From positions 384,001 to 448,000 of the forward strand of contig CAXXVZ010000004.1 in assembly GCA_963678065.2 (NCBI GenBank): a stretch of 64,000 nt of DNA, read 5' to 3'. Positions 1,662-26,477 of the stretch are shown here, in pieces. Position numbers and translations under genes: made by a program. The notes below the pieces were generated by a model. That model saw only the letters and a list, made by a program, of their open reading frames with translations. It did not search any database and was not told the origin of the DNA. Within the stretch, counting starts at the first letter, position 1. Each line of letters starts with the position of its first letter. The DNA is from Treponemataceae bacterium. GTDB lineage: Bacteria > Spirochaetota > Spirochaetia > Treponematales > Rectinemataceae.

Positions 1662-1689
1662 CGTCGCTCTCCTTGCAGTTTATATTATC

Positions 1690-1718
1690 ACTTTATGTTG
1701 TTTAATAGCATTTGTCAA
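1690..1718 (-). promoter_or_regulatory. Sigma70-type promoter for the IolG-like/MDR genes
   Basis: TTGACA-N17-TAAAGT in an AT-rich gap. Confidence 0.65.
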
Positions 1719-1920
1719 GCTTTTATTTTCATTATACTATCTCTTTGACGATTCAGTTGCGCAAAACAACAACGCAGGGCAAAGCACGGATTCTGAGCGG
1801 CCGGGACAATACGGACACAACACAGAACCTCATGCTGAAGCCGCTACCGGAACCGCGGATTTCCTTTGCGGTCCCGGCCAATCAGAGAAAGGAATTGTCC
1901 TGTCGCGGGCGACGAAACCT

Positions 1921-6731: not shown

Positions 6732-6735
6732 GGCT

Positions 6736-7743: not shown

Positions 7744-7831
7744 TGCGTTCTCCAGATGGGCATGTATCGCGGGAATGGACCGGCGGCCCGAAGGCCGCCG
7801 GTCGCGGAACCGGTGTCCGTGAGGGAGTTTC

Positions 7832-8839: not shown

Positions 8840-9039
8840 GCTCTTCCTCCTCTAAGGAATGTCGTGATGGGCACAGTGTCGACCCGGTTTCCGGAAACGG
8901 CATAGAGACGAGTTCCTGCGATCAGTTCACTTTTCAGCTCTCCGCTTGTTTGAAATCGGCACTTTCTTTCACTTATCGCACCTTTTCATTGTCCACAGCG
9001 AAAAGTGGACGTATAGTTCGGTATGAAAGGGCGGCGGGA

Positions 9040-11001
9040 ATGACAGCTCGGGAAAAAACAAAGGGAAAACACTCACTGCTCCAGGTGTTTTTCCTCGCGA
9101 GCGCGGTTCTGATCCTTGTCCTCACCGGCATCGTCTTCTTCGTCGGGAACAACATCGTCACGATAAAGGATCTCTCCGTCAGCGCCTCGGAGCTTCTCGT
9201 AAAATGGAATGCGCTCAATGTGGCGACCCAGGACATTCTTCTCGGACGCTCGGACCCCCCGATTCCGGAGACGGAGGGACTCGAGACTTTCCGGAAGGAC
9301 TGGATTTCGAAGGCTCAGAGCTTCGACGCGCTGTTCGGGAATCTCCGGGAGGGAAAGAAACTCGCGTTCCTGAAAAAAGAATGGCGGGACAAGATGGACT
9401 CGGCGCTGGCGCTGTGGACCATCACCTATGAAAAACTGATCGCGGCGGACAAGGATCTCGGCGCAATCATCGCGTCGGGCCTCGGAGCCAAGGTCTTTCC
9501 GGGTCTCATCTACAACTATTACAGCAAACGCGGCCAGCGGGATCTGAGCTTCGACGAAATCGTCCTTCTCATGAATTTCACCAACAAAATCACGATCCTC
9601 ACCATCTCGGGCAACGAGTTCAACAGCACCGTAAATGAGATCGCCGACGCCATCCACTCCGAGTCGAACGCGGAAATCCGGAGGATCATCGCGTTCTCGC
9701 TCTGTCTCCTCATCCTTTTCCTGGTCACCATCGCCGTCATCCTCCGAATTCAAGAGGAGTACGCGGCCCTCCGCGCTGAAAAGGGAATTCTGGAGGAGGA
9801 TGCGCGGAACCGGGCTGTGCGGGAATGGATACTGGGTACGGGGGATGCCGATGGGCAGGTCCCCGCGGCGGGCGCATTGGGGAACAGCCGCGCGGGCATC
9901 GATCCCGAAGCCGGATTGGCCCTCATCCTTCTCAGGGTAAACCGCTTCTCCGAATTCTGCGCCAATCACAGCAAAAAGGACCGGGACAGGATTCTGTCTT
10001 CCGCCCTCAGACTGGCCGGGAACGTCGCGGACAGACGCTCCATAGCCTGCGTGGGAGTCGATTTCGAACAGCATCTGGCTCTTGTCCTGAATCCGCCCGG
10101 CGCTCCGGGCGACGAGGCGACGCGCGAGGTTCTGAAATCATTCGCGCTCGAAATCGCAGAATCGCTCGCCCGCAATCTCGATATACGGCTCTCCGCGACA
10201 GCCTGCCTTGTGCGCGGCGATGTCCGGTCCCTGGGCGATGCCTATGTCAGGGCGATCCAGGCTTCGAATTACCGCTTTACCTTGGGCTCGGAGCTGCTTA
10301 TCTGGGCCGACGCGGTCGGGTCGAACGATCCGGAAAGCTACGAGTATCCCCTGGAAAGGGAAAAGGCGCTCTGCAACGCCATAAAATCGGGAAAGAGCGA
10401 GGAAGCCCGGGCCGAATACCAGGCGATAACCAGGAACGCGGCGCGCTTTTCGTACAATGTCGCGCAATCCACGGTGCTCCGCATCGCCCTCGCCGTCAGC
10501 TCGACGATCGAGCTGATCGAAAAAAGCCACAACACGAAGATTCTCGCCGACATCGTCTCGCTGGTCGCGTCGATCAATGGCCTCGAAACCCTCGATGAAG
10601 TGGATATGGCCTTCTACGACGTGTTCAGGACCGTGACCCGGTATCTGGACGAAACGAGAAAGGACCGGCACACGCTCATCATCGGCGGCGTGAACAAAAT
10701 CATAGAAGCGAACTACAGGAACCCGAACCTGTCCATCGATCTCATCGCCGACGAACTCAGACTCTCAGCCAGCTACATCGGAAGGGTATACAGGAAGCTG
10801 ACGTCGAAATCCGTGGCCGAGGCGATCAACGAAAAACGGCTCACTATCGCCACGGCACTCCTCGTCGAGAAGGATTGCACGATCAGCGAGATCACCACCA
10901 GCATCGGAATCACGAACAGCGCCTATTTTTACACGCTTTTCAAGAGAACCTACGGCCTCACGCCGAATGAATACCGCAGGAATATACTTCCTGCGAACTG
11001 A
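9040..11001 (+). CDS. Membrane-anchored AraC-family transcriptional regulator
   Basis: Two hydrophobic segments flank a ~175-aa extracytoplasmic region; C-terminal AraC HTH (LSIDLIADELRLSASYIGRVYRK...YFYTLFKRTYGLTPNEYR). Start codon uncertain. Confidence 0.85.
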   Translation: MTAREKTKGKHSLLQVFFLASAVLILVLTGIVFFVGNNIVTIKDLSVSASELLVKWNALNVATQDILLGRSDPPIPETEGLETFRKDWISKAQSFDALFGNLREGKKLAFLKKEWRDKMDSALALWTITYEKLIAADKDLGAIIASGLGAKVFPGLIYNYYSKRGQRDLSFDEIVLLMNFTNKITILTISGNEFNSTVNEIADAIHSESNAEIRRIIAFSLCLLILFLVTIAVILRIQEEYAALRAEKGILEEDARNRAVREWILGTGDADGQVPAAGALGNSRAGIDPEAGLALILLRVNRFSEFCANHSKKDRDRILSSALRLAGNVADRRSIACVGVDFEQHLALVLNPPGAPGDEATREVLKSFALEIAESLARNLDIRLSATACLVRGDVRSLGDAYVRAIQASNYRFTLGSELLIWADAVGSNDPESYEYPLEREKALCNAIKSGKSEEARAEYQAITRNAARFSYNVAQSTVLRIALAVSSTIELIEKSHNTKILADIVSLVASINGLETLDEVDMAFYDVFRTVTRYLDETRKDRHTLIIGGVNKIIEANYRNPNLSIDLIADELRLSASYIGRVYRKLTSKSVAEAINEKRLTIATALLVEKDCTISEITTSIGITNSAYFYTLFKRTYGLTPNEYRRNILPAN

Positions 11002-11108
11002 AGGCCTTTGTGCGGCCGATCCGCCGATTGCCGGCGGTTGCATCGCCGACTCGCCGGATTGCCGGCCCGGTTTATCTCCGATTGCCGGCTCATTTTCCGG
11101 TTTCCCGT

Positions 11109-12113
11109 TCACTTCCGGGCAAGGACAACGCCCCACAGATCGTCCATGGTGTCTATGTTCGCGGCAGTCACGACCCGGCCGGGAACAAGAAAAACCTTCT
11201 GGCTCATGGACCTTCCGGTCCCGATGGAGAGAATGCTCTGCACGAGCATGGTCGTCATCGGCCATATGTCGAAGGCCGTATCGACATCGATGTAGCCTGC
11301 GCGGATGAGGGGTTCTCCATTCGGAAACACATCCTGGCTTCCGATAAAAAAATGCTCGGGGTCGGGATAGGGAGCCCACCTGCCGATCTTCCGGAGGCTG
11401 GCCTCGACGCCGTCCATCAACCAGTCGGAGGCGCAAAAAATGGCCGTCGCCTCCGGATGCCCGGCGAGCGCCGCGTCGAGTCCTGCCTCGACCTTTTCCG
11501 GAATCCAGTCCGAGTGAACCTCCGCGATTATCTCGGCTCCCATCTCCGCGGCCGCCCGCTTCAGGCCCTCGCTGCGGTTGAGCGCGTTCCTGTCGCCGAG
11601 GGAGCCCGTGATGTTGATGATCCTAGGACGAATTCCTTGTTCCTTCATCCGCTTGATGAGGGCGACCCCCGTCGTATAGGCCTGATCGATGGTGTCGAGA
11701 CCGATATAGGCATCAGGGACGAGAACCGGATCGGGGTCGGTGGCCCGATTGTACACTATGACCTTTATCCCCGCCGCGTGCGCTTCGCCGATGAGGGGAA
11801 GGACGGCTTTCGAGTCCTGCGGCATTATCACGATGATGTCGGGTTTTTTCGCTATGGCCGCCCTGATGTTCTGCAGCTGTTTCGGCGTCGAGGCGTACGC
11901 GTAGGAGAAGGAGACCAGAATATCCTTCCGGGGCGACTGAATGGCCTTGAGGAGAAAGGCCTCCATCGCGTGGTAGATATCGATGTCCTCGGCGCCGAAG
12001 GAAAATTCGACCCGGATCTGTCTGGGTTTCGCGGGCCCCTTCGCGGTGCATCCCGACAAGACCGCCATCGCGAACACAAGAAATACAGCACTCCTGACCA
12101 CGATCCGCACCAT
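11109..12113 (-). CDS. Sugar-binding lipoprotein (RbsB-type), paralog of 7832-8839
   Basis: Lipobox LSGC; shares ASD, QDV, GYIDV and FLVxGRV motifs with the ABC binding protein. Confidence 0.85.
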   Translation of the reverse strand: MVRIVVRSAVFLVFAMAVLSGCTAKGPAKPRQIRVEFSFGAEDIDIYHAMEAFLLKAIQSPRKDILVSFSYAYASTPKQLQNIRAAIAKKPDIIVIMPQDSKAVLPLIGEAHAAGIKVIVYNRATDPDPVLVPDAYIGLDTIDQAYTTGVALIKRMKEQGIRPRIINITGSLGDRNALNRSEGLKRAAAEMGAEIIAEVHSDWIPEKVEAGLDAALAGHPEATAIFCASDWLMDGVEASLRKIGRWAPYPDPEHFFIGSQDVFPNGEPLIRAGYIDVDTAFDIWPMTTMLVQSILSIGTGRSMSQKVFLVPGRVVTAANIDTMDDLWGVVLARK

Positions 12114-13078: not shown

Positions 13079-13741
13079 TCAGTCCAGCGCGGCGGGCTCC
13101 GGCGCGTGCGCAAGGTCGGGCGCGCACCAGAGCGCCCCGGCATCGCGCAGAACCGCCTCGGAGAAACTCGTCGTGATGCCGAGGCAGCGCGCGCCCGCGG
13201 CCACTCCCGCCTTCAGGCCGTTCACGGCATCCTCGACAACGAGGCATTCTTCGGGCCTGACGCCTATCCTGCGCGCGGCCTCGATGTAGATGTCGGGGAA
13301 TGGTTTCTTCCGGACCACATCCCCTCCCGTCACGACGGCGTCGAAGGCCGACTCGTCGATGCCGAGAAACTCGAGGTTGATGAGGACCTTGACCCTGTCG
13401 GCGGCGGAGGCGAGCGCGATGCGCAGACCGGAGGACCTGCAGGCGCGCAGGTATTCCACCGCTCCAGGAAGGACTTTCATGCCGCGCTGCCCCGTGCCCG
13501 CGCACTCGCCGTAGATCGCGTAGGTCGCGGCCTTCGCCTCGTCGATATCGATGACGATCCCGTACTTCTCCGCGACGCCGCCTATGTAGCGGCTCTCTCC
13601 CGCGCCGACGAAGGGCAGGAAATCGTCGTGGCGCACGGCGAGTCCGTATTTGCGGGCGAACATCTGGAGGGCGGCCTCTGCGATGAGTGCTTCGGAATCG
13701 ACGAGCACTCCGTCCATGTCGAACAAAACAGCGGAAATCAT
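13079..13741 (-). CDS. HAD-family phosphatase
   Basis: FDMDGVLVDSE, ASAA, KKPFPD, VEDA; GGAG RBS before MISAV. Confidence 0.88.
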   Translation of the reverse strand: MISAVLFDMDGVLVDSEALIAEAALQMFARKYGLAVRHDDFLPFVGAGESRYIGGVAEKYGIVIDIDEAKAATYAIYGECAGTGQRGMKVLPGAVEYLRACRSSGLRIALASAADRVKVLINLEFLGIDESAFDAVVTGGDVVRKKPFPDIYIEAARRIGVRPEECLVVEDAVNGLKAGVAAGARCLGITTSFSEAVLRDAGALWCAPDLAHAPEPAALD

Positions 13742-13781
13742 CGGAACTCCTTGGGGCTGCGGTGTGGCGGTGCGGATCAAA

Positions 13782-14597
13782 TCAGATGTAGCGTTTGAGG
13801 GGCGAACCCGTGACGAATGCGTAGAGCTCGATGTACTGCTTGATCGTGCTGCGGCCCAGCTTGGCGATCAGCACTTCCTCGATCTGGAAGAATCCGACCT
13901 CGGAGGACATCTCCACCATGATGGATATGGGTTTTTCTCCGCCGGCCTGGATGTGGACATCCTCGATGGAACTCGCGGAATACTTGTGTATGTCGCCTAC
14001 GCGGGGCTCGTTCCCGAGCGAGAGAGGGATTCGCGCCCTGCCCTTCTGTATGTCGCAGCCGTCGGCGACAAGGATGACACCCGCCTCGAGCGAGTGTATG
14101 GCGCGCGTGCCCATGTGGCCCGATATTCCTTCGATCGCGAGGGAGCGGAGAATGAAGCGCCGGCTCGCGTCGTCATGGAAGACGGCGGCGAGAACGCGGT
14201 CGATCACGGGAAGGCCGAGGTAGACAGAGTGGAGCTCGTGGTCCTGGCGCCCGATCGTCATGCCGAGATCGTGAAGGAATGAGGCGAGGATGACGGCGAC
14301 GAGACTGTCGGAAAAGCTGCCGATCTCCTCCTCCTCGAGGCTCGTCTTCACGCCGGCTTTTTTCAAGAGGTTCATCATGAGGATGGCGTTGAGCACCACC
14401 GTGCGCATGTGGACGGGGCCGTGGTCGTTGAAACCGAGGCGTTTGATCGAGACGGTGTTGGCGTAGTCCTGCATGATCTGGACTTCGGGATCGTCCATGA
14501 GGAGCTGCGCGGTCTTGAAGGCCGGATTGTCGCGGCCATACTCGGAAAGGAGCGAGAGGATCTTCCTCTCCAGCACCATTTCCTTGGGGGATTTCAT
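13782..14597 (-). CDS. HD-domain metal-dependent phosphohydrolase
   Basis: DHGPVH, LHDLG, GHMG, VADGCD. Confidence 0.85.
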   Translation of the reverse strand: MKSPKEMVLERKILSLLSEYGRDNPAFKTAQLLMDDPEVQIMQDYANTVSIKRLGFNDHGPVHMRTVVLNAILMMNLLKKAGVKTSLEEEEIGSFSDSLVAVILASFLHDLGMTIGRQDHELHSVYLGLPVIDRVLAAVFHDDASRRFILRSLAIEGISGHMGTRAIHSLEAGVILVADGCDIQKGRARIPLSLGNEPRVGDIHKYSASSIEDVHIQAGGEKPISIMVEMSSEVGFFQIEEVLIAKLGRSTIKQYIELYAFVTGSPLKRYI

Positions 14598-14698: not shown

Positions 14699-15961
14699 TC
14701 AAATATCCGGCGCGTTGGCGAGGAGGTAGTCCTCGGCCTCTTTGCACCAGAGCATGTCGTGGGCGGCGACGATGCGCGCGAGCTCGGCGTAGAAGGAACT
14801 GCGCGTGCCGAGGGAAGCGAAATCGGCGAGGGCGACGAGCTCGAGCCTCTTGTGCGTGTAGATGAGCTTCTTGCCTCCGGGAATCTTGTCGAGGTTGATG
14901 GTCGTCGACGCGGCGGAGTTGAGTCCGCCCACGTGGGTGATCATGGAGACCGGATTGAGGGTTCCCGCGGCCATCATCTCCAGGGACTCTATCATGTCGT
15001 CGGTGTTGCCGCCCGAGGTTCCGACGAGGTGGTGGGACTCGTAGTGGACGTTGTAGAAGTTGAAAGCGGCCGAGAACCCCGTGTCGGTGGGGCCGGCGAA
15101 GAAGTTGAGGCAGCCATCCGTCCCGAGAAGCTTGTCGGCCATCTCGATGAGGGGCTTCACGGGGGCGAAGACGAAGACATCGTCGAAGAGCTTGCCGCCG
15201 TTCTGTTTCTGCAGGTAGGCCACGGGGTCGGCGATTTCCTTCGTGTTCACGTAGACCAGTTCGACGCCGTTCTTCGCGGCCTCGGCCACGGTGATGATGC
15301 GCGCGGCGCGCTCCAGGCGTGCAGGATCGATGTCGGTCACGACGACGCGTTTCGCGCGGCGCGGCGCGTGGATGGCGTAGTCGATGGCGCCGAGTCCCAT
15401 GGGACCGACGCTCGCGAGCAGCGCGAGTGATCCGCCCTCCTTGATGCCCATCTCGTGAACGTAGGAGCCACCTTTGGTGTGGTACTGGGCGTGGTAGGCG
15501 CCGACGATGCAGGAAACCGGCTCGGAGAGGGAGCCCATGAAGAAGTTGTCAGCCTTGTACTCGAGGAGGCAGCCGCACTCCATGACCTCGTTCGGGATGA
15601 TGGCGTAGGTCGAGTCGCCGCCCGTGTACTCGTAGGAGTAGCCCGGCGCCCAGAGCGTGCCCTGGTAATTGAGCGCCGGCTGTATGGCGAACGTGGCCCC
15701 GGGCCTGAACTGTCCGGCCCACTTGGATCCGACTTCCTCGATGACGCCGCAGAACTCGTGGCCGATGATGACCGGGTTCTTCGCGAGTTCGTGGCGCACG
15801 CGCTTGTGCTTTTCGCCCTGCATCGCGAGCTTGTGGCTCGACATGCAGATGGAGTCGGAGACGATCCGGACGAGAATTTCGTCGTCCTTGATCGCCGGAA
15901 GCTCGAATTCCTCGAGCCTGAGGTCGTTCACGCCGTGGATGCGTACGGCTTTTGTCTTCAT
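14699..15961 (-). CDS. L-sorbose 1-phosphate reductase (SorE)-like MDR dehydrogenase
   Basis: SDSICMSS, IGHEF, EPVSC, GPMGLGAIDY, LNFFAGP, GTSGG, IPGGKKLIY. Confidence 0.82.
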   Translation of the reverse strand: MKTKAVRIHGVNDLRLEEFELPAIKDDEILVRIVSDSICMSSHKLAMQGEKHKRVRHELAKNPVIIGHEFCGVIEEVGSKWAGQFRPGATFAIQPALNYQGTLWAPGYSYEYTGGDSTYAIIPNEVMECGCLLEYKADNFFMGSLSEPVSCIVGAYHAQYHTKGGSYVHEMGIKEGGSLALLASVGPMGLGAIDYAIHAPRRAKRVVVTDIDPARLERAARIITVAEAAKNGVELVYVNTKEIADPVAYLQKQNGGKLFDDVFVFAPVKPLIEMADKLLGTDGCLNFFAGPTDTGFSAAFNFYNVHYESHHLVGTSGGNTDDMIESLEMMAAGTLNPVSMITHVGGLNSAASTTINLDKIPGGKKLIYTHKRLELVALADFASLGTRSSFYAELARIVAAHDMLWCKEAEDYLLANAPDI

Positions 15962-16039
15962 GTGCGTTCTCCTTCAGCCGGCACGATGCCGGCTTTGACC
16001 ATTCGGCCCCCTCCGGGTTTCAGTCCGGGGCCGGTCCGT

Positions 16040-17590
16040 TCAGATGCCGGAAACCCGTCCGCCCCTTCGTGCAACGAGGCCGAGCATAGCTTCCATGTAG
16101 TCCGCGAATCCGTCCAGGCCCTCCATGGGCCGGACTGACTTGTATTCTATATCGAAGTCGGATCCGAAATCCTCGAGGGGGCGTCCGGACAATGCGCTGG
16201 CTGCCGTCATCGCCGCTCCGAAGGATGTCGCCTCGGCGAGGTCGGTGATCCAGGTCGCGTTGCCGGGCAGGGCGGCCGCGAGAATGCCGCAGTAGTCGGG
16301 ATTCTTGCGGAAGCCGCCCTCGGTGAACACGTCGCTGCCGGCTTCGAGTCCCGTGCGGCCGAGAGCGACGAGGGTCTGGACAGCGAGAGAGAGGTTGAGC
16401 ACCGCCCCCGCGGTCTCAGGATCGGAAAAAAAGGCAGGAACCTTCTCCCCGCTCTCCATCGTCGCGAGGGGGAAGTCCGTCCCGCCCTCCACGGCCATGG
16501 CGCTCGAGCCCGGAAATTGTCCCGAGCCAGGGACGATCTCCGGAAGGATGAAGAGCCGTTTCTCCCGGACGATCCTCGCGTAGACGGAGGGATCGGAGCA
16601 TGCGGGCACCGGAGAGGACGTTTTCGCGATGAGATCGGTGTAGGTCCCGTACTCGAATCCGCCGAGGAATATGGCGGTCTTGACGGGCTTCAGGAAGGCC
16701 GATCGGTTGAAGAATACGACCTTGCCCAATTCGTCCGCCTTGAATCCGTACTCGGGGCAGGGGTGCATGAGGACGCACCATGTTCCCGTCGAGTTGAGGA
16801 CGAAATCGCGTCCGCCGCGCGCGACGATGTGCGGGACGAGGGAGGCGTTGGAATCGTGGATGCCCATGGTCACGATAGTGGAAGCGTCGAGGCCGAGACG
16901 GGCGGCCAGCTCGGGTTTGAGCCTTCCGAGGATGTCCTGCGATTTCCTCAAGGGGGAAGGCATCTTGTCCGCGAGACCGAGGACCCGCGCGACGGAGGAG
17001 TACTCTTCTTTTTGCCAGTCCCAGAGGTAGGTGTGACAGCCGACGTAGGTGCCCTCGGCTCCGGCCGCGCCTGAGAGCCTGTATCCCCAGTACTGGGGAT
17101 AGGAGAGCACGAGCTCCGTCCGGGCGAATTGTTCCGGGAAGCGCTCCTTCGCGAATAAAAGCCCCTTCGCGGGATTGATGAGGGCGGAGAGGACAGGCGT
17201 GCCGGTTACCGCCTGGAGCGCCTCGGGCTTTCCGGTCAGGTCGTAGAAACGCTTCTGGAACTCCGGTCCGGGCTCGTAGGTGTAATAGACGCAGGGCAGG
17301 CAGGGCTTCCCGTCCGCGCCGAGGCAGACCATGGTGGCGCCGTGCGTCGAAACCGCGATGGCGCGGATCGGATAGCGCTCTGCGAAATCGGCGAGCATTT
17401 CGAGGAACCAGTCCTCCATGCCCGCGAGATCGTGGGTTTCGATATCCCCCAGCATGACCGGCTCGAAGGTCCTCGACACGGAGGCGAGACAGTGCGGCTT
17501 GACGCCTTGTCCGGCTGAGTCCGGCCATTCGTAGATGGCGACCTTCTTGTTGGTCATGCCTATGTCGATGACGGCGATGATGTGGCTCAT
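16040..17590 (-). CDS. FGGY-family carbohydrate kinase
   Basis: IDIGMTNKK, VSTHGAT, GIHDSNAS, NSTGTW, EGGF, ATSFGAA. Confidence 0.85.
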   Translation of the reverse strand: MSHIIAVIDIGMTNKKVAIYEWPDSAGQGVKPHCLASVSRTFEPVMLGDIETHDLAGMEDWFLEMLADFAERYPIRAIAVSTHGATMVCLGADGKPCLPCVYYTYEPGPEFQKRFYDLTGKPEALQAVTGTPVLSALINPAKGLLFAKERFPEQFARTELVLSYPQYWGYRLSGAAGAEGTYVGCHTYLWDWQKEEYSSVARVLGLADKMPSPLRKSQDILGRLKPELAARLGLDASTIVTMGIHDSNASLVPHIVARGGRDFVLNSTGTWCVLMHPCPEYGFKADELGKVVFFNRSAFLKPVKTAIFLGGFEYGTYTDLIAKTSSPVPACSDPSVYARIVREKRLFILPEIVPGSGQFPGSSAMAVEGGTDFPLATMESGEKVPAFFSDPETAGAVLNLSLAVQTLVALGRTGLEAGSDVFTEGGFRKNPDYCGILAAALPGNATWITDLAEATSFGAAMTAASALSGRPLEDFGSDFDIEYKSVRPMEGLDGFADYMEAMLGLVARRGGRVSGI

Positions 17591-17606
17591 GTATCGGATA
17601 CTCCTG

Positions 17607-18869
17607 TCAGTTCAGCATGACCTGTCCGCCGGTGACCGGCAAGGCCTGTCCGGTTTCATATTCCTGATCTACAAGGTAATAAATCGCGCGCATGACGTCA
17701 GGTCCCGTGCAGCCTCTTCCCATGGGAACTTTGGCCTCGTAGAAGGCCTTGACGTCGGCGATGGTTTTCGCGCCGGGGACCTTGCCCGCCTCGAGGTACT
17801 GGACGAAGAGTCCTCGGACGGGATCGGACCAGAGGGGGCCGTCGAAGAAGTTGCCGGGGCAGATCGCGTTCACTTTGATTCCGAATTCGACGAGTTCGAG
17901 GGCGAAGCTCTGCACGAGCCCGATCGAGCCGAACTTGGAGCCGGCGTAGGAGGCGTTCTTGTTGGATCCCTGCAGTCCCGATTTGGAATTGATCTGGATG
18001 ATATCGGTCGGCCTCTTGCCGGAGGTCCTGCTCTGGGCGCGCATGGTGAGCCCCGCGTGCTTCGTGACGAGCATGAACGCGGTGTAGTTGACGTCCGTGA
18101 CGAACTTGAAGGCGCCGAGTTCCTGCTCGAGAACGGAGGATGCCTTGAGGACGCCGGCGTTGCTGACGACGAGGTCTATCCCTCCCGCCTCGACCGCGAT
18201 GGTCCCGAACATGGCCTTCACCGAGGCTTCGTCCGCCACGTTCACGGCGATGGCCGCGGCGACTTCCCTGCCCTGTTCCGCATTGAGGGTTCCGGCGAGG
18301 CGACGTGCACCCTCGAAGTTCATGTCTGCGATGAAAACGTAGGCTCCGGAGGACGCGAGGCCCCGCACGATCTCCTCGCCGAAGCCCTGGGCGCCGCCCG
18401 TCACACAGGCGATCCTGCCCTCGACGACGCGGGAGCGGCCAGAGGCAGAAGCCGCATTGCCCGACCGGAGCCTTGAGTCGGCACAGGAGTCCCAGAAAGC
18501 CACATCGCCTCTCGTGGCGCGCGCGCGGGCGGCTTCCATGGAAAGCCCTGCGTAGAAGGAGATGCTCCCCTCCTCAGTCCCGAGGCTCAAGCCTCCGGGA
18601 AGATGTTCAGGTCCCGCGCCCATCTTCGCGAAAGCGGAGACGAGTTCGGAGGCGGCTTCCTTCCCGGAAAGATTTGTCAGCGAGATGAGGGCCGGACCCT
18701 CCGCGATCGGGTCGTCCGCGATCGGACCCTCCGCGACCTGGCCCTGCCCGTCCCGCCCCCGAGCGGCCGGAGCCTCGCCAGGGACTACGAAGACGGGCAT
18801 CCCTGCGGCCCCGAGATAGAGGCCGCGCACGAGGGGCGCATATGTGGCGAGAGTCTGTGTATCAGTCAT
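17607..18869 (-). CDS. SDR oxidoreductase, sorbitol-6-phosphate dehydrogenase (SrlD)-like, with ~145-aa N-terminal extension
   Basis: TGGAQGFG, NAG, NSKSG, YAGSK, GNFFDGPLW, VTGGQVM. Confidence 0.85.
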   Translation of the reverse strand: MTDTQTLATYAPLVRGLYLGAAGMPVFVVPGEAPAARGRDGQGQVAEGPIADDPIAEGPALISLTNLSGKEAASELVSAFAKMGAGPEHLPGGLSLGTEEGSISFYAGLSMEAARARATRGDVAFWDSCADSRLRSGNAASASGRSRVVEGRIACVTGGAQGFGEEIVRGLASSGAYVFIADMNFEGARRLAGTLNAEQGREVAAAIAVNVADEASVKAMFGTIAVEAGGIDLVVSNAGVLKASSVLEQELGAFKFVTDVNYTAFMLVTKHAGLTMRAQSRTSGKRPTDIIQINSKSGLQGSNKNASYAGSKFGSIGLVQSFALELVEFGIKVNAICPGNFFDGPLWSDPVRGLFVQYLEAGKVPGAKTIADVKAFYEAKVPMGRGCTGPDVMRAIYYLVDQEYETGQALPVTGGQVMLN

Positions 18870-20293
18870 CTGAGCCTTCCTTCCGCGACGAGGGCGGCGA
18901 TATCCGCAACCACAGCTGGTTGCCGGGGGTCGAGCATGCGGCCGGCCACCGCGTAGATGGCGAGGCGATCGGCGAGACTTCTGTCCGCGAGCGGATTGTC
19001 GGCCCTGAAGAGGCCGAGCCGCGGATCGGCGGAGGCAAGTTTTTCATGGGCCACCAGCGCCCAGGTCGTATCGACGAGGTGGGCGAACTCAGGCCGCCGA
19101 AGCTCGGGGCAGTTGAAGGTCTGCCTCGGCTGGTTGATGTCGACGCCGGAAATTTCCATGAAGTCGTGCTTCGCGCAGAGCGCCTTCACACGCCCGAGCT
19201 GGGCGGAGGTGTTGCGCGGCGGCATGTAGGTCACGGCGAGATATCCCAGCTTCCCGAGCTCGACGAAGAGCTCGTCGAGATAATCGTCCTCGAACTTCTC
19301 GGCCTTCTTGTCGCCCGTGGGAGATTCGCCGACATCGCCCAAGTAGGCGTAGGCGGGAATCGCTCCGATGGAGCGGGCGAAGGCGACGGCCTCGCGGACG
19401 GGGATGCATTCGCTCTCGTCGGGCTGGATGAAAATTCTGTCCAGGAAACCTGTCTTGAGCACGTTGATGAGGTCGTAGACGGCGATGGCGTTGGCCGGGT
19501 CGGAGAGGAGGGCGGCGACCTTGGATGTCACCTTTATCCCGAAATCCTTTTCAAGCCCGGCGACGAGGCCCCTGCCATGTCCGGCGGTATCGGTGGCGGT
19601 CCCCGGAGCGTCATAGTGCGCGATCATGCGCCCGGCCACCGCCCGGCAGAGGTGGCGCTCGGTAATGCCACCGCCCTCGGAGGCCATCGAGAGGGGGAGG
19701 ATGTCCTTTTCCATGGAGATGCCGGGGATGCCGGCGGCTTCGAGAAGATGGCTCGCAGCCGCCGCCATAGCGACAGTCCGCATGTTGCGCCTCGCGCGTA
19801 TGGGCGCAAGGAAGGCGTCGAGCCTGTCGATGTTGTACGCGGGCACGCCCTGGATCGTCATGTAGACGATGCCGGCCGAGTCCGGATTGTTGATCTTGCG
19901 CGAGGCGAAGGGGCTCATCCCTCCATCGGCCGCCTCGCGGAAACTGACCCTGAGTTCGCAGCCGGTGACCCCGCCGAGGCCCAGGACGGCGCAGGCTTCC
20001 GTCATCTCGCGGGCGGCGGAGATCGAATCGTGGTCGACGGAGCCCGCCACTTCCAGCCCGGCCTCGAAGGCGCGCAGGGCGGCCATCGAGGGCGTGTAAG
20101 GGCTGAAGCTGTAGATCGTGTGGATGTGGTTGTTGACTTCCGCGCCCGGCGCCGCGGCTGCGGGCGCGGGAACCCTCAGGGCCAGGCCGGTGTCGACGTA
20201 GGATCGAAGGGCGGCGCAGCGATCCCGGGGACTGAGCCCGGAATCATTGATTCTGAGACGCAGAGCCTCGGCCGTCATGTCGCCCTCACTCAC
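18866..20293 (-). CDS. PHP-domain protein (putative metal-dependent phosphoesterase)
   Basis: NNHIHTIYS, VDHDS, GCE, SGVDIN; GTG start after AAGGAG. Confidence 0.78.
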   Translation of the reverse strand: MSEGDMTAEALRLRINDSGLSPRDRCAALRSYVDTGLALRVPAPAAAAPGAEVNNHIHTIYSFSPYTPSMAALRAFEAGLEVAGSVDHDSISAAREMTEACAVLGLGGVTGCELRVSFREAADGGMSPFASRKINNPDSAGIVYMTIQGVPAYNIDRLDAFLAPIRARRNMRTVAMAAAASHLLEAAGIPGISMEKDILPLSMASEGGGITERHLCRAVAGRMIAHYDAPGTATDTAGHGRGLVAGLEKDFGIKVTSKVAALLSDPANAIAVYDLINVLKTGFLDRIFIQPDESECIPVREAVAFARSIGAIPAYAYLGDVGESPTGDKKAEKFEDDYLDELFVELGKLGYLAVTYMPPRNTSAQLGRVKALCAKHDFMEISGVDINQPRQTFNCPELRRPEFAHLVDTTWALVAHEKLASADPRLGLFRADNPLADRSLADRLAIYAVAGRMLDPRQPAVVADIAALVAEGRLR

Positions 20294-20305
20294 GGGTAGC
20301 TCCTT

Positions 20306-22762
20306 TTAGAGACCAGTCCTCGCCCTGCGGGCGAGATCCATGGCTGTCTGGACTGTGGTCGGCACGTGGCCGGCGAGGGGCATGATTCTCTCATGGATCG
20401 TGTCGACGATCCAGTCCTTCTGCGGGAAGTAGAGCTGCTCCATCTCCGCGGCCGGCGTGATCCAGTTGCGGCTGCCGACCACGGCGACGGGTGCGTCGAG
20501 GTAATCGAAGGCGAACTGTGTCACGTTGGATGCCACGGTGTGCATGAAGCTGCCGCGCTCGCAGGAGTCGCTCGCGAGCACGAGCTTGCCGGTTTTCTTC
20601 ACGGACTCGAGGAGGACGGAGTAGTCGAGGGGCGCGATGAAGCGCAGGTCGACGACCTCGACCGAGAGACCGTACTTGTCCTCGAGGAGCTTCGCGGTGT
20701 CCATGGCGCGGTAGAGGGTGGCACCCAAGGTCGCGATGGTGAGGTCTTTGCCGGTCTTGCGCACGGCGCTCTGTCCCTCGGGTATCTCGTAGTAGCCCGC
20801 GGGCACGCCGCTCTTCTCGAATTGCTCGCCCACATCGTAGAGGAGCTGGCTCTCGAAGAAGATGACGGGGTCGGTGCCGCGCAGGGCGAGGTTCAGCATT
20901 CCCTTGGCGTCGTAGGGCGTGGCGGGGAAGTAGGCCTTGAGGCCCGGAACATGGGCGACGAAGGCCGACCAGTCCTGGCTGTGCTGGGCGCCGTACTTGT
21001 TGCCGACGGAGACGCGCACCGTCAGCGGCATCTTGAGGAGACCGGCCGACATGGACTGCCACTTGGAGGCCTGGTTGAATATCTCGTCCCCGGCGCGGCC
21101 CATGAAGTCGCAGTACATGAGTTCGACGACGGCGCGTCCGCCCGAGAGCGCGTAGCCGACGCCCGAGCCGACGATGGCTCCCTCGGAGATCGGGCTGTTG
21201 AAGAGCCTGTGGTAGGGAAGCGCCTCGGTGAGGCCGCGGTAGACGGCGAAGGCGCCGCCCCAGTCGCGGTTTTCCTCGCCCCAGGCGGCCATGGTCGGGT
21301 CGATCGCGAAACGGTGGATCATCGCCTCGAAGAGGGCGTCGCGGTACTGGAAGAGCTTGTTCTTGGAGACGGGCTTGCCCTCGGCGTCGAAGGCGTAGCG
21401 GACCTTTCCGGCAAGGGCCTTGACTCTGGCATTCTCGGCGGGGTCGCCGAGAAGCTCGGGCGCGCGCTCGTCGAGCTTTTCGGCTTTCGTGTTGGAGAAC
21501 ATGACGGATTCGATGAAGGCGCCGTTGACGCGCGGGCACTCGGCCTCGTTCGTGGCGAGCCTGACGACCGAGTCGAGTTTCTCGAAAATGGCTTTCCGCG
21601 CGGTGTCGAGTTCGTCGCGGGTCGCGACCTTGTTCGCGATGAGGTAATCGGCGTAGGACGTGATGGAATCGGTCGACTGCCAGAGCTCGACCTCTTCCTT
21701 GCTGCGGTAGCTCGAGGCGTCGGAGGGCGAGTGACCCGACACGCGGTAGGTGATGGTGTCCAGGAGCACAGGGCCGCGTCCCTCGAGGAGAATCTTCTTC
21801 TTGCGCCCGACGGCTTCGGCGACGGCGAGGGGATTGTAGCCGTCCACGCGCTCGGAGTGCATGTTCTCGGGGTTGACGCCGGCGCCGACGCGGGCGAGGA
21901 CCTGGTAGCCCATGGTCTCGCCATTGGTCTGGCCGCCCATGCCGTAGAAGTTGTTGAAGAAGTTGAAAAGGATGGGCGGAGCGCCGCCGACATCCTTGTC
22001 CCAGAGTTTGCGGTACTGATCCATGGCCGCCAGGCTCATGGCTTCCCAGACGGGGCCGCAGCCCATGGACGCGTCGCCGATGTTGGACACGACGATGCCG
22101 GGCTTGCGGTTGATCCTCTTGAAGAGGGCGGAGCCCGTCGCGATGTCGGCCGAGCCGCCGACTATGGCGTTGTTCGGCATCGATCCGAAGGGCGTGAAGA
22201 AGGCGTGCATGGAGCCGCCAAGGCCGCGGTTGAAGCCGGCCTTGCGCGCGAAGATTTCGGCGAGGGTGCCGAAAAGGATGAAGTTCTCCGCGCGGTCGGC
22301 CAGGTTTTTCGCGGGGATCTTGTCGACGAGTTTCAGGGTTTCGCCGTCGAGGAATTTCTCCATGACGGAGATGAGCTCGTTCTCCGGCAACAGGCGCGAG
22401 GCCGAGAGGCATTTGGCGAGGATTTCGCCGTGGCTGCGGTGCGAGCCGAAGATGAAGTCATCGGGCAGAAGGGCGGCGCACTGTCCGACCGAGGCCGCTT
22501 CCTGGCCGATGGAGAGGTGGGCGGGGCCCTTGTGGTTGTACTCGATGCCGTTCCAGGCGCCCATGGTCTTGAAGGTGTTGAGCATGGTCTCGAACTCGCG
22601 GATGTAGACCATGTCGAGCCAGATTTGCTTCAATTTTCCGGCGCCGAAAGTTTTCAGCTCCTTCTTGAAATCGCTCTTGTAGCTGTTGACTGGAATGTCG
22701 GCGATTTTGAGGGTCGAGGGTTTCCGCACATCGGCGGGGTCGACAAGTATCGATTTTGGCAT
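20306..22762 (-). CDS. Fused E1 alpha-beta TPP-dependent 2-oxoacid/acetoin dehydrogenase component
   Basis: Alpha half: [16 protein letters not shown]...NN, YRVSGHS. Beta half: [26 protein letters not shown]. Confidence 0.92.
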
Positions 22763-22826
22763 TGCTATCCTCCGTTATACTGTTGTGTGCGTGGGCCCTT
22801 CTACCAGGGAAGTCCCGCGCTCTTTA

Positions 22827-24206
22827 TCAATGGGCCATCGCCCAGGCCGCTTCGCGTATCGCTTCGCAGACCGAGGGGTGGGGAAAAATCATCTGGCGCA
22901 GGTCGGCGACGCTCATCTGTTGCTCGATGACCGGAGCGGCGCCCCAGATCATCTCGCTCGCGTAGGATCCGACGACGTGGACACCGAGCACCCGCTCCGT
23001 GCCGGCCTCGACGATCAGCTTCACGCCTCCCGGAGCCGCGAAGCCGTTCTCGGCCGCGAAGCGTCCGGAGACGCGCAGCGGGAGCGAGGAGGTCTTCACC
23101 GCGATGCCGCGGGCGGCCGCTTCCTGCTCGGTGATGCCGATGCCGGCCGCCTCCGGTATTCCGTAGACGGCCCAGGGAACGGCGTCGTAGCGCATGCGGT
23201 CAGCGCCCTTCGCGGCACCGCCGCCTGAGAGTATGTCGGTCACGGCGACTTCGGCCATGCGGTAGGCCGAGTGCGCGAGGAGGCTCTTGCCGGTAACGTC
23301 GCCTATCGCCCAGACACCGGGCAGATTCGTGCGCATGCGCTCGTCGACGATGATTCCTTTCGGCGTCATGTCGAGTCCGGCCTCCTGACCGCCCCAGCCC
23401 GAGAGATTGGGCCTGCGGCCGACGGCCATGAGGACGAGGTCGGCGGGGCTTTTCGCCTCCTGGCCATCCTTGGTCCGGTAGGCGACGGTCCCGCCTTCGA
23501 TGCGCTCGACCCTGCAGCCGAGCTTGAAGGAGACGGCTTTCATCGCACGGCGCAGTATGGGCGCGTGCTCCTTGTCCATGAAGGGCACGATCTCGTCCAT
23601 CATCTCGACGACCTCGACCTTGGAGCCGAGGGCGGAGAAGAGGCTCGCGAACTCGACGCCGATCACGCCGCCGCCGATCACGCAGAGCGAGGCCGGCACC
23701 TGGCCGATGGCGAGAAGTCCCGTGGAGTCGACGACGGCCGGATTGTCCTTCGCGCCGGGAATCGGCGGCATGACGGGCGAGGAACCCGTCGCGAGGATGA
23801 CGGCGGCCGCCCCGTGGACGACGCCGTTTACTTCGACCTTTCCCGACCCGACGAGCCGGCCGGTCGCCTGCACCACCTCGACGCCGAGCTTCTTCTCGGT
23901 GAGGGCGATGGCGCCGCGCAGCTTCTCGACCACTTCGGTCTTCCACGCCTGCATCGCGCTCCAGTCGAAGCTGACGCCCTCGGCTTTGACACCGAACCTG
24001 GCGCCTTCCTTTGCGTGCAGGTAGTACTTGGCGGAGTTGAGGAGAGTCTTGGTGGGAACGCATCCCACGTTGAGGCAGGTGCCCCCGAGGTACTCCTTCT
24101 CGACGAGAAGGACCTTTTTGCCTTTTTCCCCGAGGCGCTCGGCGGCGACATACCCGCCCGGCCCGCCTCCGAGGATTATGACATCATACTTGTTCATTTT
24201 TTCCAC
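22827..24206 (-). CDS. lpdA: Dihydrolipoamide dehydrogenase (E3)
   Basis: GGGPGGY, GGTCLNVGCVP redox disulfide, GGGVIG, HPSVCE. Confidence 0.95.
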   Translation of the reverse strand: MEKMNKYDVIILGGGPGGYVAAERLGEKGKKVLLVEKEYLGGTCLNVGCVPTKTLLNSAKYYLHAKEGARFGVKAEGVSFDWSAMQAWKTEVVEKLRGAIALTEKKLGVEVVQATGRLVGSGKVEVNGVVHGAAAVILATGSSPVMPPIPGAKDNPAVVDSTGLLAIGQVPASLCVIGGGVIGVEFASLFSALGSKVEVVEMMDEIVPFMDKEHAPILRRAMKAVSFKLGCRVERIEGGTVAYRTKDGQEAKSPADLVLMAVGRRPNLSGWGGQEAGLDMTPKGIIVDERMRTNLPGVWAIGDVTGKSLLAHSAYRMAEVAVTDILSGGGAAKGADRMRYDAVPWAVYGIPEAAGIGITEQEAAARGIAVKTSSLPLRVSGRFAAENGFAAPGGVKLIVEAGTERVLGVHVVGSYASEMIWGAAPVIEQQMSVADLRQMIFPHPSVCEAIREAAWAMAH

Positions 24207-24213
24207 ATCTCCT

Positions 24214-25659
24214 TCACACGAGCATCACGATGTCTATGTTCGCGATGTAGTCCCCGAGGTCCTTGAGGAAGCGGGCGGCGTCCGCCCCGTCGACGACGCG
24301 GTGGTCGACCGTGAGCGAGAATCCGATCCGCATCTCCGCGCCCACGGTCCCGTCTTTGGAGATGGTCGGCCTGGGCACGATGGCGTCCACGCCGAGGATT
24401 CCCGTCTCGGGCTCGTTGAGGATGGGCGTGAAGCTCTCGATGCCGAAAGCCCCCAGGTTGGTGACTGTGAAAGTCGAGCCGGAGAGCAGGTCGGGGTTGG
24501 GAGAACCGGCCACGCAGTCGCCGGCGAGCTTTTTGGAACGCTCGGAGAAGGCGCGAAGCGAGAGGGATTCGGCGCCGCGGATGACCGGGACCATGAGGCC
24601 GCGCGGCGTATCCACGGCGAGGCCGAGGTGGACACGCCCGAAGCTGCGGACCGCGCCGTCCACGACGTGGGCGTTGATCCGGGGGTACTTCGCGAGGACC
24701 CTCGTGGCGGCGAAGGCAACGAGGTCGCCGATCGTCACGCCGGAAAGGCCCAGGGCGGGGTCGGAGTTCTTGAGGCGGTTGCGCATGGAAAGAAGGCGCT
24801 CCGCCGGAGCGCTCGCGTTGAAAGTGAGCTGGGCGCTGGCCTGGAGCGAATGCATCATGCGGTCAGCGATGATTTTCCTGATGCTCTTGATCGGAGTCTC
24901 CGCGTAGGGGCCGGGGAAATCCGCGTCCCCGGCACCGCCGGTGACGCCTGCGACCGCAAAGGGAGCCGTGGTCGCGGCTGTGACAGCAGAGACCGCGGCA
25001 GGAGCGGCGGCAGCGGCGGCAGCGGCGAAGTCAGCGACGCCCGCCCGTCCACCGAAGGCCGTTCCGGCTCCGGGAACAGCGGCACCCTTCGTCGCGAGGA
25101 CGCGCGCCGCGGCCGTGAGCTCAGGCCTCTTCCCGAGAGCCGCCTTGATGTCGCGCTCGATGATGCGTCCGCCGGGACCGGAACCCGGGATGCCGGCGAG
25201 GGGAAGTCCCTCGCCGGCCGCGAGGTTGCGGGCCCTGGGGCTCGCAAAACCGACCGCGGCCGCCCCGGCTTCCGCCTGAGCGGCGGGCGGGTTTGTCCCC
25301 GCGGATGCGGGAGCGGAGCCTTCGGCAGCTGGAGCGGACATCTCGAGCCGGGCTTGCGCCTCCGACGGCGCGCCCGCAGCGGGAGCGCCGTCTTTGCCCA
25401 CAAGGGATGCCCAATCCTCTCCGCTCTTCCCGATCACCGCGATCGGCTGCAGAACGGGAACATCATCCCCCTCGGGATGAAGAATCTTGAGGACGACGCC
25501 ATCCGCTCCGGCAGGGACCTCGAAGCTCGCCTTGTCGGTCTCGACCTCGCAAATCGGCTGCGAGGCGGCGACAGCCTGCCCCTCAGCGACCTTCCAGCCC
25601 ACGATCACGCAGGATTCGACCGTATTCCCCTGCCTGGGCATAATCACAACATGTGCCAC
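24214..25659 (-). CDS. Dihydrolipoamide acyltransferase (E2), one lipoyl domain
   Basis: VETDKA lipoyl lysine; ASPRAR...GSGPGGRI E3-binding domain; DHRVVDG catalytic motif. Confidence 0.95.
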   Translation of the reverse strand: MAHVVIMPRQGNTVESCVIVGWKVAEGQAVAASQPICEVETDKASFEVPAGADGVVLKILHPEGDDVPVLQPIAVIGKSGEDWASLVGKDGAPAAGAPSEAQARLEMSAPAAEGSAPASAGTNPPAAQAEAGAAAVGFASPRARNLAAGEGLPLAGIPGSGPGGRIIERDIKAALGKRPELTAAARVLATKGAAVPGAGTAFGGRAGVADFAAAAAAAAPAAVSAVTAATTAPFAVAGVTGGAGDADFPGPYAETPIKSIRKIIADRMMHSLQASAQLTFNASAPAERLLSMRNRLKNSDPALGLSGVTIGDLVAFAATRVLAKYPRINAHVVDGAVRSFGRVHLGLAVDTPRGLMVPVIRGAESLSLRAFSERSKKLAGDCVAGSPNPDLLSGSTFTVTNLGAFGIESFTPILNEPETGILGVDAIVPRPTISKDGTVGAEMRIGFSLTVDHRVVDGADAARFLKDLGDYIANIDIVMLV

Positions 25660-25721
25660 CTTCTACCTCCACACGTGATCCCGTTCCGCGTCCTGCGCTC
25701 TTGCGCGGGACATGGGGTACT

Positions 25722-26477
25722 TCAGAACCTTTTTATCCGTATCGACGCCTGCTCGAGGGAGCGGACCACATCGGCCTGCAGCCCCGAGTCGGTAATGATT
25801 CCATTCACCGCCGAAAGCGGCAACACACCGACGAAGCCCGACTTTCCGTACTTGGACGAATCCGCCACGAGCCACGTCTCTCTGGCGCGAATGCGCATCG
25901 CCTTCACTATCTCTGCCCCTTCCACGAGTTGGGTCGTCATCCCATTCTCCAGGCTGAATCCGTCCGTTCCGACAAAAGCCAACGCGACATTGAAATCCGC
26001 TATCGTCCGGAGCGCGATCGGGCCGACCATGGACTCCGTCGCCCGCCTGAACTCGCCGCCAGTCATGGTTATGGAGAGCGCCGGATTGAGCCGCGCGTAG
26101 GAGTAGACGAGGGTGGAATTGGTGACGATGTGGATGTCCCTCTTGCCGAGAAGGTATTTCGCGATGAGGGCGGTCGTCGTCCCGGCCTCGATCATGATGG
26201 CGTCGCCGTCGCGCACGAGTTCCGCCGCGGCACGGGCTATCCTGTTCTTCTCCTCCACCATGCTGCGCTGCCTGTCGAGAATGGAGGGGTGGAAGGCGGG
26301 CGAGGCCCCCCCCCGCGAACGGGTGATGAACCCTCGATCCTCAAGGGACTTGAAATCGGAGCGCACCGTGACCTCGGACACACCCAGCTCGGCAGAGAGT
26401 GCGGCCACCGAGAGCGATCCGCGATCTGCCAGAAGCTCGAGTATCCTGCGATCCCTCTCGCCAAGCTCTTCGGTCAT
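25722..26477 (-). CDS. DeoR/GlpR-family transcriptional regulator
   Basis: LGVSEVTVRSD HTH, RSRGGA, EAGTTT, VTNS, DSSKYG; start MTEELGE. Confidence 0.92.
   Translation of the reverse strand: MTEELGERDRRILELLADRGSLSVAALSAELGVSEVTVRSDFKSLEDRGFITRSRGGASPAFHPSILDRQRSMVEEKNRIARAAAELVRDGDAIMIEAGTTTALIAKYLLGKRDIHIVTNSTLVYSYARLNPALSITMTGGEFRRATESMVGPIALRTIADFNVALAFVGTDGFSLENGMTTQLVEGAEIVKAMRIRARETWLVADSSKYGKSGFVGVLPLSAVNGIITDSGLQADVVRSLEQASIRIKRF

Follow-up and report, generated by a model that had tools for sequence, protein, structure and literature searches.

An operon joining a fused lipoamide-dependent E1 complex to sugar-phosphate genes in a Treponemataceae bacterium, with a predicted role in deoxyketose-phosphate cleavage

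Described systems closest to the operon

Acetoin dehydrogenase (AcoA/AcoB, AcoC, AcoL) cleaves an alpha-ketol to acetyl-CoA and an aldehyde, and in the L-sorbose pathway SorE reduces L-sorbose-1-phosphate at C2 and SorD (SrlD) oxidises the other end of the molecule, giving fructose-6-phosphate. Here we analyse eight minus-strand genes at 14699..26477 of a 64,000-nt stretch of contig CAXXVZ010000004.1 from a Treponemataceae bacterium (the whole stretch is called the window; position 1 is its first letter), in which a lipoamide-dependent E1-E2-E3 complex is encoded together with relatives of SorE and SrlD, a sugar kinase and a PHP-fold protein. The operon is real and conserved; its activity is predicted to be on deoxyketose phosphates, and the proposed reaction would form an undescribed pathway. 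We consider it probable that L-fuculose-1-phosphate or L-rhamnulose-1-phosphate would be flipped end for end to a 1-deoxyketose-6-phosphate, which E1-E2-E3 would cleave to acetyl-CoA and a tetrose-4-phosphate. A full-text literature search (most subscription papers lay outside it) turned up neither an assay of this E1 family nor a description of such an end-flip route.

The thiamine/lipoamide E1-E2-E3 layout with co-encoded E2 and E3 is that of acetoin dehydrogenase, and the proposed reaction would be the same alpha-ketol cleavage. Acetoin dehydrogenase has separate E1 subunits, however, whereas here alpha and beta are fused, the E1 carries three inserts, and the complex stands under DeoR control among sugar-phosphate partners with a proposed six-carbon sugar-phosphate substrate. 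With the L-sorbose pathway the operon shares a ketose-1-phosphate reductase, a short-chain dehydrogenase/reductase (SDR) resembling hexitol-6-phosphate dehydrogenase and, as proposed, the end-flip chemistry; unlike the sorbose operon it has no sorbose phosphotransferase system (PTS), its kinase is an ATP kinase of the RhaK type, its SDR scores under the SrlD cut-off, and its product would enter E1 and not glycolysis. As we read it, the system works like acetoin dehydrogenase and the sorbose flip, and it is a member of neither. The classical fucose and rhamnose routes (FucIKA, RhaABD and RhaEW) have the same isomerase and kinase steps; unlike them, the proposed route would involve no lactaldehyde, propanediol or lactate, the methyl end leaving as acetyl-CoA. 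In anhydroglycolysis YbiW and PflD open 1,5-anhydrohexitol-6-phosphates to 1-deoxyfructose-6-phosphate, our favoured E1 substrate, and fructose-6-phosphate aldolase (FSA; FsaA) then splits C3-C4 to give hydroxyacetone and glyceraldehyde-3-phosphate (available text of PMC13450708), whereas E1 would split C2-C3 oxidatively.

The nearest cluster in print is that of Caldicellulosiruptor (Athe_0699-0706 and Csac_0865-0876), which, compared by description, likewise holds SorE, lipoate ligase, E2-E3-E1 in that order, DeoR and RhaA (PMC8579813, available portion); the layout of one of our loci, L095, matches it. According to the accessible part of PMC4187192, the cluster is rhamnose-induced and confined to rhamnose users, that of C. 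saccharolyticus lists SorE, E2, E3 and E1, and the other cluster genes are called unclear. In the portion of PMC8579813 available, C. bescii SorE is filed under 'Sorbose?', and the supplement gives the C. bescii E1 counterpart as 41% identical to P27746. The cluster has thus already been noticed in print, with another substrate assigned; unlike the proposed route, Caldicellulosiruptor has an aldolase and makes propanediol.

The operon and its fused E1

A sequence-only reading of the window had described a deoR-E2-E3-fused E1-PHP-SDR-FGGY kinase-SorE-like set, tightly packed on one strand, and all eight open reading frames stand where it placed them, separated from DeoR through to SorE by 62, 7, 64, 12, -4, 16 and 78 bp. 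Pfam and NCBIfam profiles confirm DeoR, E2, E3, E1, SDR, FGGY kinase and zinc reductase, and the catalytic motifs of the last six are intact. The DeoR-family repressor (251 aa; 25722..26477; PF00455 and PF08220) is followed by the E2 acyltransferase (481 aa; 24214..25659; PF00364, PF02817 and PF00198), which has a single lipoyl domain (Lys in ETDKA), an E3-binding domain and a catalytic domain with a DHR motif and scores under all NCBIfam E2 cut-offs, and by the E3 dihydrolipoyl dehydrogenase (459 aa; 22827..24206; 444 bits on TIGR01350, cut-off 408.8). A scan for promoters and terminators gave 3 promoter-like and 13 terminator-like sites, which is chance level.

The fused alpha-beta E1 (818 aa; 20306..22762; PF00676, PF02779 and PF02780) is a thiamine-diphosphate enzyme with the GDA-type motif and long spacing to the NN that had been read from the sequence: GDA229-X38-NN270, with a spacer 12 residues longer than that of human E1-alpha. 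The catalytic residues Glu547, His594 and His344 are present, and His108-Arg109, invariant in 34 aligned rows and found in AcoA-like rows, aligns to the Tyr-Arg of human pyruvate dehydrogenase (PDH; 1ni4_A). Arg499 and Lys589 are conserved within the close family and are candidate phosphate ligands. It is in these features that an ordinary pyruvate or branched-chain 2-oxoacid dehydrogenase (BCKDH), co-regulated with sugar genes and providing NADH and acetyl-CoA while the cell grows on deoxy sugars, can be weighed. Many homologues carry the automatic annotation '2-oxoisovalerate dehydrogenase E1', the best solved relatives are PDH and BCKDH beta subunits, and E2 and E3 are standard. Yet the E1 falls under the PdhA/PdhB cut-offs (174 against 393.85 on TIGR03182, 105 against 411.35 on TIGR03181 and 240 against 321 on NF006667), has His-Arg for Tyr-Arg and bears three conserved inserts; the match of its alpha half to solved BCKDH alpha (E about 1e-11) is weaker than to PDH. 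The source genome, moreover, encodes elsewhere both an AceE-like E1/E2/E3 set and a second alpha/beta E1, no amino-acid catabolic gene recurs among the 121 neighbour proteins scanned (selected out of 227 candidates), and this explanation leaves unaccounted for both the absence of FucA from FucI+/E1+ genomes (below) and the roles of SorE, SDR and PHP. We regard it as very improbable. The sequence-only reading that the complex is no ordinary PDH or BCKDH, but an acetoin-dehydrogenase-like cleaver of ketose phosphates, fits all the genomic tests run. The second alpha/beta E1 (G000:C2:450294-457099) lies with a lipoyl protein, SDRs and an atypical gene of FSA/transaldolase-like type.

A genome scan returned at least 598 matching stretches, of which we kept 80 E1 loci. 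Their E1s show 53-81% identity, and the loci belong to spirochaetes, Chloroflexota, Actinomycetota, Verrucomicrobiota, Lentisphaerota, Myxococcota, Gemmatimonadota and Poribacteria; Treponema primitia ZAS-10 is a cultured carrier. In a plasmid comparison of the alpha half (60 rows listed out of 314 records), rhizobial fused E1s stand at about 50% identity, while the remaining 57 rows, annotated pdhA and acoA among them, reach 24-34% (29% for the acoA match). Judged by its sequence, the fused E1 is a distinct sugar-linked subfamily, and we predict it to be the component that cleaves a 1-deoxyketose-6-phosphate.

The rhizobial relatives (L279-L281: Rhizobium pRL8, Agrobacterium pAt and Pleomorphomonas plasmids) are 52-54% identical, and in all three regions a free lipoyl domain and an alpha/beta hydrolase replace E2, a variant that possibly releases the free acid. 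They adjoin sugar kinase, xylulokinase or mannitol-dehydrogenase genes; a homoserine role considered for the pRL8 relative was dropped, its immediate neighbours being sugar genes and no literature on it being found. A more distant fused E1 family (L096-L103; 35-38%) occurs in 2-3 copies per genome in one spirochaete family, adjoining, as read by eye, mannitol-1-phosphate-dehydrogenase-like genes with DeoR, or a GcvH-like lipoyl carrier. All ten genomes with this family have FucI and none of the ten has a strong FucA match; nine of the ten match PHP, which we do not count as support (divergent subtype, unlinked places).

Partner enzymes and the proposed route

The kinase (516 aa; 16040..17590) is 46% identical to the gene preceding rhaD in Treponema saccharophilum and 35% identical to the gene that closes a rhizobial rhamnose ABC operon, which is where RhaK stands; RhaK is described in PMC3870299 (seen in part). 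By homology and synteny we assign it to the RhaK type as a predicted L-fuculose/L-rhamnulose kinase, and it would identify the sugar class as deoxy sugars. The SorE/YggP-type zinc reductase (420 aa; 14699..15961), a predicted ketose-1-phosphate reductase, is 48% identical over 418 residues to Klebsiella SorE and 52% identical to E. coli YggP; the uncharacterised yggP is thus nearer to this gene than SorE is.

The SrlD-like SDR (420 aa; 17607..18869) has sorbitol-6-phosphate dehydrogenase as its best family (NF009050, 213 bits, under the cut-off of 307) and RhaEW as runner-up (138 bits), and is 26% identical to the gene in the SorD position of Klebsiella. As the sequence-only reading held, the operon has no aldolase or transketolase gene, but the first ~150 residues of the SDR resemble the C-terminal half of a RhaE-type class II aldolase module whose zinc site is gone, the three zinc histidines being absent. 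This N-terminus looks like a degenerate aldolase remnant, a call that rests on a shared short motif and an intermediate form in L080, its own profile score being not significant. Intact RhaE-SDR fusions occur in L091, L121, L077, L078 and L042, and the source genome has an intact RhaE-type protein as a separate gene beside RhaA.

The PHP-fold metalloprotein (475 aa; 18866..20293) has no Pfam match; ESM Atlas places it, with a score of 0.98, among PHP clusters in which 22-56% of the members carry PF02811. The structure predicted for it (pLDDT 90.5) has a Foldseek match to the RNase AM/TrpH type (E 1.9e-10) and superposes on 3o0f with Z 25.7 and a root mean square deviation of 2.8 over 277 residues (a second VIA match has Z 24.1), with a modelled barrel and helical insert as in that type. 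The metal site keeps HxH, DHD and Glu; the AH-motif His is replaced by Tyr315 and the His after GSD, which we take to be a metal ligand, by Asn387, and at least 90% of 24 rows share both replacements. By elimination, as the only core gene without an assigned role, PHP is the candidate for the isomerase/epimerase step. Two loci tie PHP to the mannitol-dehydrogenase family: in L091 (7173-9692) it is fused behind a domain of that family in an 840-aa protein, and in L292 a gene of that family adjoins PHP-SorE-SDR.

We infer every substrate in the proposed pathway from gene content, families, motifs and co-occurrence. The kinase would make L-fuculose-1-phosphate or L-rhamnulose-1-phosphate, SorE would reduce C2 of the deoxyketose-1-phosphate, and the SDR would oxidise C5 to give a 1-deoxyketose-6-phosphate; these two redox steps would turn the molecule end for end, so that the methyl becomes an acetyl beside a secondary alcohol, as in acetoin. 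E1 would then release the aldehyde half as tetrose-4-phosphate and pass the acetyl to lipoamide and CoA, the products being acetyl-CoA and NADH. Fischer bookkeeping, which reproduces the SorE/SorD route as a control, takes fuculose-1-phosphate to 1-deoxy-D-tagatose-6-phosphate and rhamnulose-1-phosphate to 1-deoxy-D-sorbose-6-phosphate, both leaving D-threose-4-phosphate, and takes 6-deoxy-L-sorbose-1-phosphate (the C3 epimer of fuculose-1-phosphate) to 1-deoxy-D-fructose-6-phosphate and D-erythrose-4-phosphate. In the most economical version SorE and SDR would keep their L-sorbose-1-phosphate/D-glucitol-6-phosphate stereochemistry and PHP would first epimerise fuculose-1-phosphate at C3 to 6-deoxy-L-sorbose-1-phosphate; this version carries somewhat more than half of the weight we give the route, and by itself is a real but minority possibility. 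If C3 is not epimerised, PHP might isomerise the resulting 1-deoxy-D-tagatose-6-phosphate or 1-deoxy-D-sorbose-6-phosphate. Either version needs one isomerase or epimerase besides SorE, SDR and E1, the step for which PHP is the candidate.

The glycolyl-CoA alternative bears on the same enzymes: E1 would act on an ordinary ketose phosphate (fructose-6-phosphate or xylulose-5-phosphate), yielding glycolyl-CoA and an aldose phosphate, and the polyol genes would be there for the use of L-sorbose, D-arabinose or a polyol. It could draw on the SorE/SrlD homology, on the rhizobial relatives beside xylulokinase and mannitol-dehydrogenase-family genes, and on the acceptance of D-arabinose by FucI (PMC3637100, available part). 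The flip of such substrates, however, already yields a central metabolite, and therefore no cleavage is needed; the neighbour proteins scanned include no sorbose PTS, glycolate or glycolyl-CoA genes, and the kinase is of the RhaK type. This alternative seems to us to have only a slim chance. A RhaK-type kinase and fucose/rhamnose partners point to 1-deoxyketose-6-phosphate and acetyl-CoA, not glycolyl-CoA, so that of the earlier proposal (glycolyl- or acetyl-CoA from a ketose or its phosphate) we retain the acetyl-CoA branch, from a 1-deoxyketose-6-phosphate, and set aside the ordinary ketose with glycolyl-CoA.

Conservation, co-occurrence and meaning

The linkage of E1 homologues to sugar genes, whose absence had been named beforehand as the refuting outcome, is seen both in a neighbourhood conserved across the 80 loci and in genome co-occurrence. 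Partners occur in the order E2 (65), E3 (54), DeoR (46), SDR (34), PHP (32), SorE (26) and kinase (16), many of the loci being cut off by contig ends; SorE, SDR and PHP are found together in 22. Among the 42 loci of at least 15 kb, 22 have at least one of these three, 15 have all three, and 17 have no sugar marker. The genomes of 16 of these 17 marker-free loci were searched, and PHP lies elsewhere in 13 of them; for the 17th (L038, in G002) a RhaB-RhaA-PHP-RhaE-SDR-SorE run is found on another contig. Several such modules located away from the E1 occur among genes for rhamnose or fucose (L276, L292, L295 and L299). Recurrent among the neighbour proteins scanned are fucose mutarotase, FucI, rhamnulokinase, RhaA and rhamnose-binding protein, and further lipoate ligase, corrinoid/methyltransferase genes and glycyl radical enzyme. 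The gene arrangement is not due to chance. In two related spirochaetes (L089 and L090) the E3 gene is missing between E2 and E1.

We then compared gene content across 251 spirochaete genomes, the source genome included (close E1 meaning at least 59% identity). Close E1 is present in 12, the distant fused E1 in 10 more, FucI in 46, RhaA in 21 and either isomerase in 52. All 12 close-E1 genomes have FucI or RhaA (nine of 12 for each), and close E1 occurs in 0 of the 199 genomes lacking both; PHP is found in 12/12 and in 0/229 E1-negative genomes, and SorE in 11/12 against 2/239 others. These genomes share kinship; within family f2 (29 genomes) E1 and FucI sit in the same four. A FucA-like gene of at least 175 bits on NF005302 occurs in none of the 12 close-E1 genomes, versus 20 of the 27 FucI+ genomes with no E1 match of any kind, in 19 of which it lies within about 12 kb of fucI. 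The fucose units of four spirochaetes (L149-L152) and of the source genome comprise mutarotase, FucI and either an ABC transporter or a regulator, and lack both kinase and aldolase; for these units the kinase is located in the E1 operon. In one actinobacterial family (121 genomes), which supplied a second phylum, E1 occurs in 18 genomes and full-length FucI in six, five of which have E1. Just downstream of FucI in the source genome, on the opposite strand (L182:3828-6073; G000:C4:309827-312072), lie a DUF1537-type acid-sugar kinase and a PdxA-family dehydrogenase, a pair that could serve the threose-4-phosphate branch; the other fucose units read have no such pair next to FucI.

The most serious alternative is that the complex handles a three-carbon aldol product, converting L-lactaldehyde to lactoyl-CoA or hydroxyacetone to acetyl-CoA and formaldehyde, with SorE and SDR acting on lactaldehyde or propanediol. 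Such a role downstream of the aldolase predicts the reverse of the mutual exclusion of FucA and E1 in our sample; the SDR scores and the identity of the SorE-like protein to a sugar-phosphate reductase likewise speak against it. A profile search (PF00596) of 34 E1 genomes found no class II aldolase in four (G155, G394, G276 and G353), all FucI+, and AraD as the sole one in G391 (FucI+/E1+); these five span two phyla. G155, the one genome with a completeness figure (99%), has no FSA/transaldolase match either, its fucose uptake and isomerase unit lying divergently adjacent to the operon, and there is therefore no source of either three-carbon compound there. On the other side, hydroxyacetone arising from 1-deoxyfructose-6-phosphate via FSA would unite the radical-enzyme context (below) with the deoxyhexose context, and the three-carbon alternative gains from several of the observations that tell against the end-flip route. 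Taking both sides together, we think it unlikely, though it deserves to be kept in view.

The observations that count against the end-flip route are these. A class II aldolase other than AraD, hence a candidate aldolase, is present in 10 of the 11 close-E1 spirochaetes searched; the source genome has a kinase and FucA-like pair (120 bits) in another cluster, and its RhaE-type protein beside RhaA is a further candidate. Many rhamnose-type loci show the RhaEW architecture, with the SDR and an intact RhaE-type aldolase joined in one protein. Among the 18 actinobacterial E1 genomes, 13 have no FucI match (RhaI-type isomerases were outside that search) and 12 of the loci carry a RhaE-type module. 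As to the FucA comparison, 18 of the 20 FucA+ control genomes come from one family, and the 175-bit line was set after the gap in scores had been seen, so that the Fisher values overstate the contrast. The structural kin of the PHP model, for which an epimerase role is proposed, are phosphoesterases. In print, lactaldehyde is the predicted substrate of Athe_0702-4 (Rodionov 2021; PMC8579813, accessible part), C. saccharolyticus on rhamnose gives propanediol, acetate, H2 and CO2 at 1:1:1:1 (PMC4187192, accessible part), a ratio that leaves no room for an E1 route as main flux, and it also forms propanediol on L-fucose (PMC3637100, accessible part); where an aldolase exists, the E1 route would be a side branch at most under those conditions. 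Radical enzymes, finally, stand beside E1 in only 3 of the 80 E1 loci, close E1 in 0 of 80 PflD-like loci (a general linkage of E1 and PflD is thus unsupported), and the bit scores of the PflD-like enzyme favour PflD (627) over glycerol dehydratase (540) to a moderate degree only.

Those few radical-enzyme loci bear on 1-deoxyfructose-6-phosphate as E1 substrate. In L069 the SorE module is separated from DeoR-E2-E3-E1 by a YbiW orthologue (887 bits to 8ID7); in L050 and L053 E2-E3-E1 sits inside a PflD-like cluster without SorE, SDR, PHP or kinase, each of the two genomes carrying another E1 copy and a SorE module at other sites. The E1s of L050 and L069 nest within the family with the same active-site motifs, in a quick 34-row tree with a single outside row on a long branch, unrooted with respect to characterised AcoA, PdhA and BkdA. 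The homologous radical-enzyme cluster of the source genome (L179; G000:C5:1090000-1109900) encodes both a YbiW orthologue (921 bits to 8ID7) and a PflD-like enzyme. Also in it are two activases, a ROK kinase, a sugar ABC transporter, an AroE-like gene and a gene for a 656-aa protein that has no Pfam match and is linked to ROK proteins by ESM Atlas; no FSA match falls within it. Of the 80 PflD-like loci, 26 have FSA, 19 with a long ROK-like gene have neither FSA nor close E1, and one has an AcoAB-like pair. FSA-type aldolases adjoin E1 in five loci; we had considered them as transaldolases consuming erythrose-4-phosphate, which the Gln/Tyr signature, presumably diagnostic of FSA, rules out. The radical-enzyme cluster as a second route to the same E1 substrate is suggestive, not general. 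More tentative still is a broader proposal in which 1-deoxy-D-fructose-6-phosphate would be a hub for fucose, rhamnose and 1,5-anhydrohexitols, feeding the first lipoamide complex to split a sugar phosphate oxidatively, into acetyl-CoA and erythrose-4-phosphate. PHP would in that case be a metal-dependent ketose-1-phosphate 3-epimerase of a new kind, and the RhaE-type module would serve as a rhamnulose/fuculose-1-phosphate 4-epimerase.

Around the operon, the transcript may extend across a 101 bp gap into a gene for a 271-aa HD-motif protein (13782..14597, minus strand) and then, after 1 bp, into a HAD-family phosphatase gene (13079..13780, minus strand; PF00702). The HD-motif protein, which has no Pfam or NCBIfam match, is possibly co-transcribed and not a conserved member: it is found in 0/80 E1 loci, and recurs 3' of SorE in G195, a genome in which that SorE borders a contig end and the search for an E1 gave none. 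The phosphatase is an occasional ninth member, with an orthologue (53-58%) directly after SorE in 4/80 E1 loci, and possibly clears dead-end sugar phosphates. A separate sugar cluster at 639-12113 holds a Gfo/Idh/MocA oxidoreductase, a xylose-isomerase-like TIM barrel, a 476-aa FucI-like isomerase, an ABC transporter, a 749-aa AraC regulator and a second binding protein; we rejected it as part of the system, its FucI-like, TIM-barrel and binding-protein genes having no close orthologue in the 80 E1 loci. In L046, L058 and L067 the operon has corrinoid and MtaA/UroD-like methyltransferase genes in its vicinity, a hint that the substrates upstream may be O-methylated deoxy sugars.

If the end-flip route is correct, it would be a further breakdown route for two of the main sugars in mucus, pectin and microbial walls, fucose and rhamnose, and would occur in at least eight phyla under the mistaken annotation of 2-oxoisovalerate dehydrogenase. 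Toxic lactaldehyde and the propanediol sink would be bypassed, and the yield would be about 3.7 ATP per sugar (by hand calculation) against 2 by the aldolase route, presumably at the cost of more electrons shed as hydrogen. The reactions of lipoamide complexes would then extend from 2-oxoacids and acetoin to sugar phosphates, the unexplained rhamnose-induced cluster of Caldicellulosiruptor would gain a function, and genome-based predictions of fucose fermenters and their products would change.

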